A stretch of DNA of 37,691 nucleotides from Candidatus Heimdallarchaeota archaeon (GTDB lineage Archaea; Asgardarchaeota; Heimdallarchaeia; Heimdallarchaeales; Heimdallarchaeaceae). Location of the stretch: assembly GCA_016839945.1 (NCBI GenBank), contig JAEOTE010000054.1:1-37691 (forward strand). Direction: 5' to 3'. How positions within the stretch are numbered: the first letter of the stretch is position 1; each line of letters begins with the position of its first letter. Below, piece by piece: positions 16,065-31,339 of the stretch. The notes under the pieces are model-generated. The model saw only the letters and a program-made list of their open reading frames with translations. It did no database searches and was not told the origin of the DNA. The position numbers and the translations under genes were made by a program.

Positions 16065-16733
16065 TTGCTCGAACCCAATACTCGCTATATACAAATAGCA
16101 TTCAATCGCGATGCTTCTCAAGTGAGAAGGATTTTACCAAAGATCCCATATGATCCTAGAATAATTATTGAAGCAGGAACTCCATACATAAAATTAACTG
16201 GAGCAGCAGGTATTCGATTGATAAGAAGAATGTGGAAAGGTATGGTTGTTGCTGATCTCAAAGTAACTGATGGAGCAGTTAGAGAGATTTTGTTTGCAAG
16301 CAGATCTGGTGCAAATGCAGTTACAGTGATGGGTTCAGCTCCAACTGTAACTATAGATTTATTCAACGCTAATTGTGCTAGACTTGGTGTATATTCTATG
16401 ATAGATATGTTAGGTGTCACTGATCCACTTCGAAAACTCCTTCCTCTGAGAAATAAACCCGATTTTATTGTTATCCATAAAGGAAGAGATGAAGAAGCTG
16501 ATGCTCGAAGTATAATACGTTACAAGGATATTTCTAAAGTGCATTCCAAGTATAAAACATTCATTGCAGTTGCAGGTGGTTTAGAACCACACAGTGTTAG
16601 ATCAGCTTTTTTCAATGGAGCTGATGTAGCTGTCTTGAATGTAATTGCAGCAGATGATCCAAATGCAGGATTACATGAAAACGATGATTTCCCAAATCTA
16701 ATTCCTGCGATTCTTCGGGAAGTAGGAAAATAG
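16065..16733 (+). CDS. OMP decarboxylase/hexulose-6-phosphate synthase (HUMPS) family TIM barrel
   Basis: 'IIEAGTP', 'ADLKVTDG', 'HKGRD', 'AVAGG'. Confidence 0.8.
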   Translation: MLEPNTRYIQIAFNRDASQVRRILPKIPYDPRIIIEAGTPYIKLTGAAGIRLIRRMWKGMVVADLKVTDGAVREILFASRSGANAVTVMGSAPTVTIDLFNANCARLGVYSMIDMLGVTDPLRKLLPLRNKPDFIVIHKGRDEEADARSIIRYKDISKVHSKYKTFIAVAGGLEPHSVRSAFFNGADVAVLNVIAADDPNAGLHENDDFPNLIPAILREVGK

Positions 16734-27240: not shown

Positions 27241-27783
27241 ATGAATGCGAAAGATGATGATGTAAAAGGATACAAAAGAAGTATTCATGAAAGTCGAAAA
27301 GATATAGCTGGAGAACATAAACTATCAGATTTGGGACAATTGTTTTTTCTAATTACATTTTTGATAATCTGGGGATTGGATTCATTTTATTTCAGATTTT
27401 CCACTTTTTTAGCAGATTATGGGTATATCTACATTAGAGCTCCAATAGCCGCTATTTTGTTCATAATAGCTGGATTTTTAGCTTACAAAGGTTTAAAACA
27501 AGTATTCAATGAAGTAAGAGATTCTCCTGCAGTTATAAAAACTGGTGTATTTGCATATTCAAGACACCCAATATATTTTGGCTCCATTCTTGTTTATGTT
27601 GGATGGATTCTATTAACAATGTCCCTGATTTCTTTGGGTTATTGGGTGATTATCGTCATATTCTATGAATATATTGCTACATATGAAGAGAAACTACTTT
27701 TGAAACAATTTGGGAAAGAATATGAAGATTATAAAAAACAAGTACCAAAATGGATACCAGGAACGAAATTTAAGAAGAAATAA
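27241..27783 (+). CDS. Isoprenylcysteine carboxyl methyltransferase/PEMT family membrane protein
   Basis: 'TGVFAYSRHPIYFG', 'EEKLL..QFGKEY..Y...VPKWIP'. Confidence 0.88.
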   Translation: MNAKDDDVKGYKRSIHESRKDIAGEHKLSDLGQLFFLITFLIIWGLDSFYFRFSTFLADYGYIYIRAPIAAILFIIAGFLAYKGLKQVFNEVRDSPAVIKTGVFAYSRHPIYFGSILVYVGWILLTMSLISLGYWVIIVIFYEYIATYEEKLLLKQFGKEYEDYKKQVPKWIPGTKFKKK

Positions 27784-27819
27784 AGATTTTCAGATATAAT
27801 AAATAATAGAAAAATTTCG

Positions 27820-27960
27820 GAAAGGTTAGTAAATTACTGCATGTCCATGGTAGAAGGCAATGTTCTTTTTCTCAACCTTTCTTACTTCATGATTGTAAAT
27901 CCACTCATTTTGATTTTCTGGTTCTTCTTGTTTGACTTTGTTTGTCAATTTTTTCACCTA
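27820..27960. repeat. Imperfect direct repeat, copy 1 (partner 29930-30070, offset 2110 bp)
   Basis: Ungapped alignment by eye. Similarity runs from just past the stop codon to the RBS of the microprotein. Confidence 0.9.
27826..27948 (-). CDS. Unannotated 40-aa microprotein, copy 1 (MTNKVKQEEPENQNEWIYNHEVRKVEKKNIAFYHGHAVIY)
   Basis: AGGTGA RBS then TTG start (alternative in-frame GTG at 27957), TAA stop, T-rich tail. 33/40 identical to copy 2, with many synonymous changes. Confidence 0.75.
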   Translation of the reverse strand: MTNKVKQEEPENQNEWIYNHEVRKVEKKNIAFYHGHAVIY

Positions 27961-27974
27961 TGTATACCTTAACT

Positions 27975-28021
27975 GGTCACATATTTTGAAGCTGGTGAGA
28001 AAAAGTGACCAAAAGGTGACC
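27975..28021. promoter_or_regulatory. Cluster of GGTCAC/GTGACC boxes upstream of microprotein copy 1
   Basis: GGTCAC 27975-80, GTGAG 27995-99, GTGACC 28005-10, GTGACC 28016-21. Confidence 0.45.
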
Positions 28022-28037
28022 AAGAAACAAACTAATT

Positions 28038-28448
28038 CTAAATTTTATGTGATAATTCCCATTTCTTAAGAATTATATCTGCCATCCCTCTAATTATCTC
28101 TGCTTCATCTTCTTCAATTACATTACATGCTTGATCGTCTGGTAAGAGTTTGCATATTTCAGAAGTTAACTCACTAATTAGTTCTTTAACAATATTAGGA
28201 GATATTCCATCTCCAACTTCTTTTATTAAAACAACTGCAAAGCAATTTGTGGCTTCTAGATAAACTTCACTGCTCTTTGTAGTAAATTGTTCTGGTTCCC
28301 CTATATCTACCTCAACAAGGAAATTTCTGATTGCTACAATTAATCCAGAAAAAAGAATAGCATCTGCAAGTTTGTCTGTTCCAGATACTGGATCATAATA
28401 ATAAACTGGAACACCACCTGGAGAGATAATATAGAGAGACTTAATCAT
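28038..28448 (-). CDS. Longin/roadblock-like domain protein (eukaryotic signature type)
   Basis: 'IKSLYIISPGGVPVYYY' beta hairpin, then helix 'AILFSGLIVAIRNFLVEV', the pattern typical of Asgard longins. Confidence 0.7.
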   Translation of the reverse strand: MIKSLYIISPGGVPVYYYDPVSGTDKLADAILFSGLIVAIRNFLVEVDIGEPEQFTTKSSEVYLEATNCFAVVLIKEVGDGISPNIVKELISELTSEICKLLPDDQACNVIEEDEAEIIRGMADIILKKWELSHKI

Positions 28449-28517
28449 CAGTTCTTAAAACTAATATCATTTTTTATATCTTTTCATAGGTTTTGAAAAG
28501 AGAAGGTAATTGGATGA

Positions 28518-28745
28518 TTAATAAAACCAATTAAAAACAAAGAGAAAACAAGAAGTAAGAGCAAGAACGATTGCAGAAACTAGCATGGTTAAAGCTAATT
28601 TAAACAGATATCTTCTGTATTCCTCTTTTTTATCAGTTTTAAAATACCTACTGATTCTTATTGGTAGAATTATAACTAGTGTAATAACAGCTAAAGAAGA
28701 AAAAGTAAATGATAATATGACAATCTGACCTACTATATCAAGCAA
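28518..28745 (-). CDS. Small two-TM hypothetical protein
   Basis: 75 aa, two hydrophobic helices around a basic loop. Confidence 0.5.
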   Translation of the reverse strand: MLDIVGQIVILSFTFSSLAVITLVIILPIRISRYFKTDKKEEYRRYLFKLALTMLVSAIVLALTSCFLFVFNWFY

Positions 28746-28810
28746 ATAAATCGTGTTAGATTCTCATTTATATTTATTAATTTTTACCCCATCAAGGATT
28801 TTTAATATAC

Positions 28811-29833
28811 TTATTCCCAGAGTTGAATTATTTCCAATCCATCCCCTGAAGCATCGAATATGTAAGCTAGATTATCAACAACTTGAACTGCCCTAATATA
28901 ATCCCCAGCTTCATGAAACTGACCAATCTCAACCATTTTCCCAATATTACTAATATCTATTATTTCCAACCCATCTTCATAATCTGCAACAAAAGCTATA
29001 TTATCAATAACATGAATGTAAGCTGGTTTACCTCCGTTATGAAAACGCCCAAGTAATTTTGGCTTGTGTAGATTGCTTATGTCATAGATTTCAACTCCTC
29101 TATCCATATTAGCTCCATAGAGAATGTTTCCAATAATTTGAAAGTGTCTGATTTGCCCCCAACTTCCTATTTTACCGGTCTTAACAGGATCTGCAGGATT
29201 TGATACATCAAACACATCTATACCATTTGGAGTGCTTATGAGAGCATAATTGTTGAGTATCTTAAGATATCCAAAGGAATTAGAAGTAAGATAAGATCCA
29301 ACTGATTGAGGAGAATAAGGATTGGATATATTGTAAATATATAATCCCTCATAAGCAGAAATATATGCAAGGTCATTGTATACATCAATACTCGCTGTAT
29401 CTTCAGAAACAGGAATGTTTGTAATTTTTATTATGTTGGTTAAGTTACCTATATCTAGTATCTCCATACCCTGATGGTGATCAGCAACATAGAGTAAATT
29501 GTCTATCAAACGAGTTGTATGTGCTCCTCCACCATCAAAGAAACGGTTAATTATTTTAGGATTAAGAGCATCACTAACGTTAACGAAAGAAACACCTAAT
29601 TCAGAAATTATAACTATATCATTATGAATAAGTAAACCTTCACAATAAAGTTCAGCAGGATGAACAGATGAAAGTTTTACAAGATCTAAAGTATGATTCA
29701 CTCTGTTTGATGTTTTTAATGGTTGAAAGATGATCCCCAACGTAATAGAAATAGTAAGAATAAGAAATATGGGTATTATAATTTTCCATTTCAATAATAG
29801 TTTGATTTTTTGCATGGATTTTTTCTCATTCAA
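28811..29833 (-). CDS. LVIVD-repeat beta-propeller protein with N-terminal anchor
   Basis: Repeated 'LYVAD...GMEILDI.N', 'GLYIYNISNP..P', 'GVEIYDISN', 'AFVADYEDGLEIIDISN'. Confidence 0.88.
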   Translation of the reverse strand: MNEKKSMQKIKLLLKWKIIIPIFLILTISITLGIIFQPLKTSNRVNHTLDLVKLSSVHPAELYCEGLLIHNDIVIISELGVSFVNVSDALNPKIINRFFDGGGAHTTRLIDNLLYVADHHQGMEILDIGNLTNIIKITNIPVSEDTASIDVYNDLAYISAYEGLYIYNISNPYSPQSVGSYLTSNSFGYLKILNNYALISTPNGIDVFDVSNPADPVKTGKIGSWGQIRHFQIIGNILYGANMDRGVEIYDISNLHKPKLLGRFHNGGKPAYIHVIDNIAFVADYEDGLEIIDISNIGKMVEIGQFHEAGDYIRAVQVVDNLAYIFDASGDGLEIIQLWE

Positions 29834-29929
29834 ATACTTATATAGATTATTTTACAAATATCAATTGAACTGATTCAAAACTTTTATTTGAAGAAAGACA
29901 TCAATAACAAATTAAAGAAATTAGAAAAG

Positions 29930-30070
29930 GAAAGGCTAGTATACAACAGTATGCCCATGGTAGAAAGCGAAGTTTTTCTTTTCAACCTTTCTTACTTCAT
30001 GATTGTAAATCCATTCATTTTGATTTTCTGGTTTTTCTTGTTTGATTTTTTGTGCCAATTTTTTCACCTA
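29930..30070. repeat. Imperfect direct repeat, copy 2
   Basis: Aligns without gaps to 27820-27960. Confidence 0.9.
29936..30058 (-). CDS. Unannotated 40-aa microprotein, copy 2 (MAQKIKQEKPENQNEWIYNHEVRKVEKKNFAFYHGHTVVY)
   Basis: Same RBS/TTG context as copy 1, TAG stop at the homologous position, T-rich tail. Confidence 0.75.
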   Translation of the reverse strand: MAQKIKQEKPENQNEWIYNHEVRKVEKKNFAFYHGHTVVY

Positions 30071-30080
30071 ACCGAACATA

Positions 30081-30132
30081 GTTCACCCTTTAAAAATAAC
30101 TTGCTCACACATTGTGGTCACAAGTTGTGACT
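30081..30132. promoter_or_regulatory. TCAC-N5-GTG(A) boxes upstream of microprotein copy 2
   Basis: GTTCAC 30081-86, then CTCAC-acatt-GTG-GTCAC-aagtt-GTGAC 30104-30131. Confidence 0.5.
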
Positions 30133-30259
30133 GAAAACAGAAAAAAATGATTGTTAAAAGTCAAAGTATGCTAATAAATCAGAAGTAAATGATGATGTTT
30201 ATTCAGAAAAAGAAGAAATAAATAGTTATGTTTTTTCATCATTAGAAAGGGTGTATTGA

Positions 30260-31339
30260 ATGAGTAAAGTTGGTTCTTCCTATATTATAGAGATAGAGCT
30301 GTTTAATCCTGATAGCTGTTCCAAAGAGAGTTGGGATTTATATCATGAGTATCGTACTACTCTACATAAGCAGCGTTTTCCTGATAGACCTTTGACTGTA
30401 ACCAATAAGCAAGCAGAAAAAGGTTTGAAAATGTTTAAAGAACACCCAGAAATAGAAGGATACATTTTCACTATAGAGGATACAACAAAAAACAAACAAG
30501 TTGGAGATCTAATATGCTCACTTCCACGTATAGGCTCTGAAACCTATAAAGAAAACAAACATTATATGGAATTTTATATCAACATTTTAGAAAATTATCA
30601 TCGCAAAGGTATAGGAACTTTAGCTTTAGAAAAAGTAAAGGAAGTAGCAAAACAAAACGAAAAGACATTATTAGCTACTGACACATATTACCCAAGTGGT
30701 AAAGCATTTCTTGAAACTATTGGAGCAGAATTAGATATAGGTATAGAAAATAGGTTACAACTAGAAAATATTGATTGGTCAATGGTAGAAAAATGGGTGG
30801 AAGAAGGACCAGAACGTTCCCCAAAAATAAAGTTAGTAAAGCTGGGTTCTATCCCTGAGGATTTGATAGAACAATTTAGTAAGATATATACTGAAACCTA
30901 CAATCAACAACCTTGGGATGAACTAGATGATGTGGCATTTACTTTTTCTCCAAAATATTTCAGGCATTTGAAAAAAGTTTTCGCAGAAACTGGAGTAGAA
31001 TGGTTAGTTATGGTTACAATAGAAGAGGATGAAAAAATATCCGGGTTAACAGAAATGAGATACAATCCTGGAAACAAAACCATGATAACTCAAGAATTAA
31101 CAGGCGTGAAGGAAGAATATAGGGGAAGAGGATTAGGAAAATGGTTGAAAGCAGCAATGCTTCTAGAAATAAAAGAACGTTTTCCAGATGTTAAAACTGT
31201 TCGAACAGAAAATGCTACAACTAATGTACCAATGTTATCAATAAATGATAGACTAGGATTCAAGTTTTTCAGAGAATCAATAGAAGCTCAAATAAAACTA
31301 GAACAATTAAATAAATATCTAAAGCAAAGAGCAAGATAA
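30260..31339 (+). CDS. Tandem GNAT N-acetyltransferase
   Basis: 'YHRKGIGT' and 'TGVKEEYRGRGLGKWLKA...NVPMLSINDRLGF'. Confidence 0.88.
   Translation: MSKVGSSYIIEIELFNPDSCSKESWDLYHEYRTTLHKQRFPDRPLTVTNKQAEKGLKMFKEHPEIEGYIFTIEDTTKNKQVGDLICSLPRIGSETYKENKHYMEFYINILENYHRKGIGTLALEKVKEVAKQNEKTLLATDTYYPSGKAFLETIGAELDIGIENRLQLENIDWSMVEKWVEEGPERSPKIKLVKLGSIPEDLIEQFSKIYTETYNQQPWDELDDVAFTFSPKYFRHLKKVFAETGVEWLVMVTIEEDEKISGLTEMRYNPGNKTMITQELTGVKEEYRGRGLGKWLKAAMLLEIKERFPDVKTVRTENATTNVPMLSINDRLGFKFFRESIEAQIKLEQLNKYLKQRAR

Follow-up and report, generated by a model that had tools for sequence, protein, structure and literature searches.

Two putative operator–promoter cassettes and an orphan family of 40-residue microproteins in Heimdallarchaeal genomes

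We describe two short genes, copy A and copy B, located on the minus strand of contig JAEOTE010000054.1 of a Candidatus Heimdallarchaeota archaeon (GenBank assembly GCA_016839945.1); positions 1–37,691 of this contig are called the window below. From comparison of sequences we conclude that both open reading frames (ORFs) are, very probably, real translated genes for a microprotein of 40 amino acids (aa). Two promoter cassettes, designated T1 (at copy A) and T2 (at copy B), are predicted, with good confidence, to be operator controlled. What appears to be new is an orphan protein family, found in two Asgard genera together with a regulon not described before, and above all its regulatory side, namely the two operator–promoter cassettes. 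The best explanation as a whole, to which we would give an even chance, is that the pair encodes inducible, transcription factor-controlled, partner-binding microproteins of a small regulon.

Two short genes and their coding sequence

The features of the two genes are as follows (positions in the window).

27826–27948, minus strand: copy A, 40 codons plus TAA stop (27826–27828), TTG start; the paralog with the T1 promoter; ATG-start orthologs open in 20 genomes
29936–30058, minus strand: copy B, 40 codons plus TAG stop (29936–29938), TTG start; the paralog with the T2 promoter
27954–27960, minus strand: Shine–Dalgarno (SD) sequence TAGGTGA of copy A, 5–6 nt 5′ of the start; genus-wide as TAGGTG(C/A)AAAAA-ATG
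30064–30070, minus strand: SD sequence TAGGTGA of copy B
27808–27825, minus strand: tail of copy A, CCTTTCC after the stop plus an oligo-T tract; probable transcript end, with putative termination
29923–29935, minus strand: tail of copy B, CCTTTCC after the stop plus a T-tract, ~100 nt before the LVIVD-repeat gene; putative termination

A first-pass annotation, made from the window sequence alone, had described two minus-strand 40-aa ORFs 2110 bp apart, and they are indeed found at 27826–27948 and 29936–30058 (stops included). The start context is the same in both, with TAGGTGA 6 nt before the initiating TTG, and there are no indels between the copies. Our own count of differences reproduced the earlier one: seven synonymous codon changes plus a TAA/TAG swap against seven amino acid changes, with residues 10–29 identical despite four silent changes. 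The 132-nt frames of A and B differ at 19 bases, distributed over codon positions 1, 2 and 3 as 7, 0 and 12. A tblastn search of the 3.0-Mb assembly (32% GC) returned these two copies only (E about 1e-23, the rest being noise), and no third copy was found; as one copy recovers the other at E 7e-23, their likeness is not a matter of chance.

The copies are nearly identical only within the stretch bounded by TAGGTG and by the CCTTTCC that closely follows the stop, as had been claimed, and pairwise alignment of the A and B flanks is no better than that of unrelated AT-rich DNA. What did not stand is the reading of these limits as a simple sign of coding; upstream of them there are in fact two distinct conserved promoter cassettes.

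An in-frame GTG located 9 nt upstream of the TTG lies inside the GGTG of the SD sequence and is out of frame in several relatives, while almost all relatives have an ATG exactly at the position of the window's TTG; the product is therefore 40 aa long. The genes had been described as unannotated, which is consistent with the absence of both the 40-aa and the 43-aa (GTG) forms of either copy from a collection of 15 billion proteins; homologs in other assemblies do appear there, under the name 'hypothetical protein'.

Two plus-strand ORFs, 29888–30130 (80 aa) and 27841–27972 (43 aa), mirror the microprotein genes. We considered them as genes and rejected them: in 12 of 26 homologs the antisense frame is not open, hence they are likely to be artefacts of the purine-rich sense strand.

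Distribution of the family and selection on the protein

In the first six-frame search, which covered 40 relatives, 16 of the 24 congeneric genomes had open frames of 42–60 codons with no internal stops. A 19-sequence profile matched 18 of the 24 and one genome of the sister genus; a profile of 39 sequences matched both sister-genus genomes (2/2) and gave no homolog in 83 other genera of the phylum, among 400 phylum genomes. To judge from these searches, this orphan family is restricted to two sister genera within a single Asgard family. The six-frame homologs are open genes of 39–42 codons. A check for frameshifts and stops found all of 28 six-frame matches open, with no internal stops, as compared with only 14 of 26 for the antisense frame.

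An exhaustive hidden Markov model (HMM) search of 1.84 billion representative proteins produced 11 matches, and a word-indexed search (restricted to 22–74 aa) produced 27 clusters of 40–43 aa. Named clusters are called 'hypothetical protein'; one NCBI entry is labelled Candidatus Thorarchaeota archaeon. Given that the 11 HMM matches are all of 37–42 aa, we are dealing with a stand-alone protein; a match to a fragment of a larger protein was looked for, and there was none. Profile searches of Pfam, NCBIfam and PDB sequences gave 0 matches to the microprotein, and the best score of an ESM Atlas feature search, 0.79, was below the meaningful level. The impression that the family is novel was supported. 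Full-text searches of the literature on Asgard small proteins and on the operator words returned nothing relevant.

Purifying selection on the protein, suspected in the first-pass annotation, was shown at the sequence level by Nei–Gojobori (NG86) estimates of dN/dS (omega). For A versus B, dS is 0.84 and dN 0.087, with omega about 0.10; omega is 0.1–0.2 for the closest ortholog pairs, and over 210 informative pairs its median is 0.34, with 98% of the values <1. Conserved across the family are the ATG/TTG start, the SD sequence, the length and an aromatic C-terminus; a pyrimidine/T-rich stretch is present 3′ of the stop in all homologs.

Promoter cassettes T1 and T2

Each copy had been thought to have its own promoter region and T-rich tail, and sequence comparison bears this out. 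When the 110 nt upstream of every homolog were aligned, two types emerged, with 21 T1 and 8 T2 upstream regions. In the window the cassettes have the following elements.

27955–28022, minus strand: T1 promoter/operator block of copy A, ~70 nt; nhmmer E 3.8e-19 against a profile of orthologous upstream regions
28016–28021 and 28005–28010, minus strand: two direct TGGTCAC boxes of T1, 11 bp start to start in the window
27992–27999, minus strand: CTCACCAG of T1
27981–27988, minus strand: TATA-like A/T element of T1, placed by spacing
27973–27980, minus strand: inverted GTGACCAG of T1
27962–27967, minus strand: GTATAC of T1
30065–30131, minus strand: T2 promoter/operator block of copy B, ~70 nt; nhmmer E 1.4e-19
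30118–30130, minus strand: perfect T2 palindrome TCACAA-C-TTGTGA (family form TCACAA-N-TTGTGA)
30105–30117, minus strand: imperfect second copy of the palindrome, abutting the perfect one
30088–30099, minus strand: TATA part of the T2 B recognition element (BRE)/TATA-like GCAAGTTATTTTTAAAG, placed by spacing
30075–30081, minus strand: CTATGTT of T2, then TAGGTG

In T1 the direct boxes are followed by TTTTT-CTCACCA, the A/T-rich TATA-like element, the inverted GTGACCAG, GTATAC and TAGGTG-(C/A)AAAAA-ATG. Pattern scans of the genus matched T1 in 23 of 25 genomes and T2 in 22 of 25, with 0 matches to the reversed-pattern control in either case. The TATA-like element is located about 38 nt before the start codon in both cassette types; with the usual archaeal TATA-to-start spacing, transcripts would start about 10–12 nt upstream, at the SD sequence.

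The upstream blocks are conserved more strongly than the coding sequence, and the conservation starts abruptly at the first box. In four divergent members (G007, G042, G004 and G020), which were recognized via the T1 block despite low protein identity, T1 is almost intact at only about 35–45% identity of the protein. One could speculate that the selected entity is mainly the DNA of the cassette, or a small RNA, and that the ORF is a tolerated by-product with little protein function; such a view would also agree with the presence of the same cassettes before unrelated ORFs and with T1 boxes lying inside small ORFs on another contig (C88, see below). We regard it as very unlikely. Omega values of 0.1–0.3 with saturated dS and the complete lack of second-position changes between the paralogs argue against it, as do the length, stop position, start codon, SD sequence and C-terminal aromatic residue kept in about 40 sequences. 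In addition, the boxes at copy A lie upstream of the 40-aa gene and not within it, and neither covariation nor an Rfam match (E ≤ 1 over 27600–30300) was found. As for the T1 block being an RNA structure, RNAalifold paired the invariant boxes only, with a covariation term of −0.14, and DNA operators were preferred. With no compensatory changes and no Rfam match, both blocks look like protein-binding DNA around a promoter rather than a structured leader.

Recurrence of the cassettes in the genome

The T1 and T2 blocks were used as nhmmer queries against the window's own genome. T1 was detected on contig C88 (23190–23250, E 3e-7) before an MFS_3/MFS_1 transporter gene, and in at least 10 relatives it stands before the orthologous gene, which encodes an MFS_3 transporter of ~481 aa. 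Other genes found downstream of T1 are those of the 40-aa family, of its divergent members and of a 113–125-aa protein. The T1 microprotein and the MFS_3 gene thus present what is expected of a regulon-embedded small protein: <50 aa, its own promoter and an operator in common with a transporter gene.

At C88:23190–23420 (L096) T1 occurs in tandem, the second copy being degenerate, and a second MFS paralog and a 263-aa winged helix-turn-helix (wHTH) gene lie just upstream of the T1-preceded MFS gene. We considered this wHTH gene, divergent from the first MFS gene, as an autoregulated factor and rejected it, as its intergenic region has no T1 boxes. At C21:13723–15030 (L133) a T1-like array of three GTGACC boxes stands before a three-gene operon. 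Its first gene encodes a protein of 125 aa and its second a membrane protein of 101 aa; the third (C21:13723–14193) specifies a coiled-coil protein of 156 aa, which matches a wHTH domain weakly (HTH_24, E 0.005) and is a candidate autoregulated factor of the T1 boxes. A 113-aa ortholog of the first gene of this operon carries T1 in G005, and the same box variant was seen in G008 and G022.

The full T2 cassette precedes either the 40-aa family or a Lys-rich family of 32–34 aa with the C-terminus ...H(K/R)G(S/T)L(L). In the window's own genome the latter case is found on C69 (T2 at 16470–16536, nhmmer E 1e-9) before a 33-aa ORF, and 32–34-aa orthologs lie behind T2 in at least nine other genomes of the genus. 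The 33-aa ORF (C69:16362–16536; L094:2366–2537, minus strand) looks unannotated and is very basic, with an isoelectric point (pI) of 9.8. Homology between the two families was tested by hhalign and rejected (probability 0.6%); they have in common only the cassette and a loosely similar build. A T2-like palindrome was also detected on C103 (nhmmer E 8e-5) between two tandem paralogous genes of 87 aa (C103:1599–2228, L093), whose products have C-termini resembling those of the 33-aa family (...LHKGSLL and ...LHRGSFL) and gave nothing significant in Pfam.

Single T2-core palindromes were seen upstream of an S9 peptidase gene, both on contig C133 of the own genome and in four relatives, and also in the interval separating a membrane-protein gene from a bactofilin-domain gene. 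At C133:46867–49017 (L097) the palindrome is a perfect TCACAA-A-TTGTGA directly before a gene for a 713-aa peptidase of the S9 (prolyl oligopeptidase) family; a related palindrome was seen at L070, L077, L078 and L091, before the orthologous gene where this was checked (L091).

By sequence, then, the two cassettes connect the pair to a second microprotein family as well as to a peptidase and an efflux-type transporter. Such a set of genes brings to mind a peptide that is exported or processed and serves as a signal or antimicrobial, with the 40-mer and the 32–34-aa product cleaved by the S9 peptidase and exported by the MFS_3 transporter. This is the main rival to the explanation that we favor, and we consider it unlikely. 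In its favor, T1 is common to the MFS_3 ('transmembrane secretion effector') transporter in many genomes, TCACAA-N-TTGTGA precedes the S9 peptidase gene in the own genome and at least four relatives, and one promoter cassette is common to two unrelated families of small peptides. Against it, the 40-aa protein is without a signal peptide, a double-glycine leader or a conserved cleavage site; selection spans its whole length, the N-terminal MAEK included; no Pro is conserved (P10 is present in this lineage only); and the peptidase and pump genes are not adjacent to the microprotein genes. An extended version, in which both peptide families, the S9 peptidase and the MFS_3 exporter with their TCAC/GTGA operators would make up a signalling circuit (a peptide made, trimmed, exported and sensed, with T1/T2-binding factor or factors closing the loop), is less probable still, and we see in it little more than a long shot. 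If true, this would be a quorum-sensing-like peptide system, the first to be described from Asgard archaea.

Predicted co-regulation with a very basic 33-aa family also bears on another alternative, in which the protein would associate with nucleic acids or ribosomes, e.g. as an RNA/DNA binder induced by stress or as a hibernation-type factor. A stand-alone gene, a strong SD sequence and an N-terminal half rich in Lys and Glu could be expected of such a protein. Still, the pI values of the window proteins (6.8 and 9.1) are those of near-neutral to mildly basic proteins, no similarity to known ribosomal or chromatin proteins was seen, and a distribution over two genera argues against a role in the core machinery; we find this alternative quite improbable.

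History of the pair

T1 and T2 genes are only a few kilobases apart in many genomes, with distances of 2, 5 and 9 kb in G016, G017 and G001, respectively. The T1 and T2 proteins are only 35–42% identical in G001, G017 and G021, and in the tree the T2 proteins of G001, G017, G021 and G023 form a clade of their own (support 100/99). In the lineage of the window (G000, G016), the T2 gene shares 80–82% identity with the T1 gene found in that same genome, and only 38–58% with T2 genes elsewhere. Judging by these comparisons, the two copies are old paralogs, defined by their different upstream blocks. The simplest reading of the sequences would be an old duplication followed by homogenization of the coding part (gene conversion) before the split of G000 and G016, with promoters that stayed type-specific. 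With dS of 0.84 the homogenization is not recent. Homogenized coding parts behind distinct promoters would explain why the similarity in the window stops exactly at the ribosome-binding site and the stop codon.

Protein features and structure model

The window microproteins have a mass of about 4.9 kDa. M1 and G35 are the only residues kept in all 39 aligned members, and A2, K4 and Y18 are almost always kept; the C-terminal residue is Tyr or Phe in all members with one exception, and relatives are 39–42 aa long. A model built by AlphaFold2 with the 39-sequence alignment has a disordered N-terminus, a helix at residues 10–25 and hairpin strands at 30–33 and 36–39 with the turn at (N/H)-G; the predicted local distance difference test (pLDDT) value of the last ten residues is 77. 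The model suggests a charged helix and a C-terminal beta-hairpin around the invariant Gly, and outside the aromatic/aliphatic hairpin the protein is hydrophilic. The 'beta-strand ligand' role, one of those proposed in the first-pass annotation, would agree with the predicted C-terminal hairpin. As might be anticipated of so short a low-confidence model (40 residues), a Foldseek search gave no PDB match at E ≤ 0.001 (best E 6.4); prediction of a homodimer (two copies, 39-row alignment) gave no verdict in either direction, with a score of 0.01. A transmembrane helix, as a type I toxin or membrane microprotein would have, is absent: the grand average of hydropathy is −1.2, and the longest hydrophobic runs are the hairpin strands of 4–5 residues.

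Two further roles proposed at first, His-based metal binding through YHGH and a leader-plus-core precursor of a ribosomally synthesized and post-translationally modified peptide (RiPP), were not upheld. They were suggested by the window copies, with their polar N-terminus, aromatic/His-rich C-terminus and C-terminal Tyr. The YHGH motif turned out to be lineage-specific. H20 is replaced by R, K, P or Y and H34 by N, F, Y or L in many members; position 34 is mostly N, position 36 is Q in about 40% of the 39 members, and there is no Cys. No RiPP core pattern or leader cleavage site (GG/GA or other) was found in the aligned family. Maturation enzymes (radical-SAM, YcaO, lanthipeptide-type or other) were searched for by Pfam on all ORFs within ~8 kb and on recurrent neighbor clusters at 17 loci of relatives; none was found in the window or conserved in relatives, where neighbors differ between subgroups. 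With variable His residues and no linked enzyme of peptide maturation, both readings are unsupported, and we take either of them to be extremely improbable.

Precursors of the mycofactocin (MftA) and PqqA type have a C-terminal GVY or E-x3-Y motif and an adjacent radical-SAM enzyme and chaperone. We considered this type of Tyr precursor and rejected it: the C-terminus here is hydrophobic-x-Tyr/Phe without a preceding Gly-Val, with no radical-SAM gene nearby.

Neighboring genes

The genes adjacent to the pair or lying between the copies are the following.

27241–27783, plus strand: PEMT/ICMT-like methyltransferase gene, convergent on copy A
28038–28448, minus strand: 136-aa protein, between the copies; no significant Pfam match
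28518–28745, minus strand: 75-aa membrane protein, between the copies
28811–29833, minus strand: 340-aa LVIVD-repeat beta-propeller with an N-terminal membrane anchor, between the copies

A double-GNAT gene diverges from copy B. The trio of genes between the copies also precedes a T1 gene in G003, and read-through from copy B into 28811–29833 and the trio may occur. The convergent ~180-aa neighbor was considered as a specific partner and rejected, as three families (PEMT/ICMT-like, flavodoxin_5 and DinB) occupy this place across loci. The divergent subgroup sits between a gelsolin-domain gene and hydantoinase A/B genes. At the loci of four divergent 41-aa members, L131 (G007:C83), L132 (G004:C22), L129 (G041:C16) and L130 (G042:C98), the order is aldo/keto reductase, a 225–238-aa gelsolin-repeat protein (by Pfam on the G007 copy), the T1 microprotein, and hydantoinase/oxoprolinase A and B, the last two on the same strand about 100 nt downstream of the microprotein gene. 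With neighbors varying across relatives, synteny points to no specific partner.

Proposed mode of action

In the explanation that we favor, both ORFs would be monocistronic genes for a soluble 40-residue protein. The TCAC/GTGA boxes around the TATA-like element would be bound by one or two sequence-specific transcription factors, so that the microprotein genes, the pump and the other microproteins would be turned on or off jointly, as a small condition-specific regulon. In the protein, a charged N-terminus would be disordered and followed by a short helix, and the hydrophobic/aromatic C-terminal part would form a beta-hairpin turning at the invariant Gly. Inside the cell the hairpin may self-associate or dock, by strand addition, onto a partner protein, for which the co-regulated transporter and other members of the regulon are candidates. 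Inducible intracellular binding to a partner seems the most likely mode of action, one that we hold only tentatively.

Several observations speak against this explanation. The AlphaFold2 model is of low confidence (pLDDT 63.6; predicted template modeling score 0.22). TATA and transcription-start positions were placed in the sequence by spacing only, and separate factors may act on T1 and T2. The TTG starts of the window copies may mean low translation. Finally, neighbor genes differ between subgroups (PEMT/ICMT-like, flavodoxin-like, DinB-like, GNAT, hydantoinase).

Metagenome-assembled archaeal genomes routinely miss small proteins. The family presented here makes a clean testable case, with clear selection on the protein and about 40 natural variants, and its regulatory DNA is conserved enough to define putative operators and a small regulon (efflux pump, peptidase, second microprotein family) in uncultivated Asgard archaea. 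Two 70-bp operators and a 40-mer accessible to chemical synthesis are offered as reagents, which could identify an Asgard transcription factor, its signal and the partner of the microprotein. As the family occurs in only two genera, its bearing is more on lineage-specific regulation than on eukaryogenesis.

Comparison with known systems

The 'Thermococcales glycolytic motif' of the TrmB family is TATCAC-N5-GTGATA. The T2 palindrome resembles it in having an inverted TCAC...GTGA core beside BRE/TATA, a resemblance only: the spacing between TCACAA and TTGTGA is N1, the flanks are different, and no TrmB-type gene is linked.

In Methanosarcina mazei the small proteins sP26 and sP36, under the control of NrpR, bind glutamine synthetase or GlnK/AmtB. 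The family described here is unrelated to them in sequence and in operator (that of NrpR is GGAA-N6-TTCC) and has no link to nitrogen genes. What they have in common is an archaeal stand-alone microprotein gene with an operator-controlled promoter and presumed binding of a larger protein.

MntS and SgrT of Escherichia coli are proteins of ~42 aa, regulon-mates of the transporter that they modulate. There is no sequence similarity to them; the present genes belong to an archaeon with BRE/TATA-type promoters, and binding to the transporter is suggested here by analogy only. The likeness lies in a soluble protein of ~40 aa with its own promoter, a narrow lineage and an operator common to a transporter gene, i.e. 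T1 before the microprotein gene and before MFS_3.

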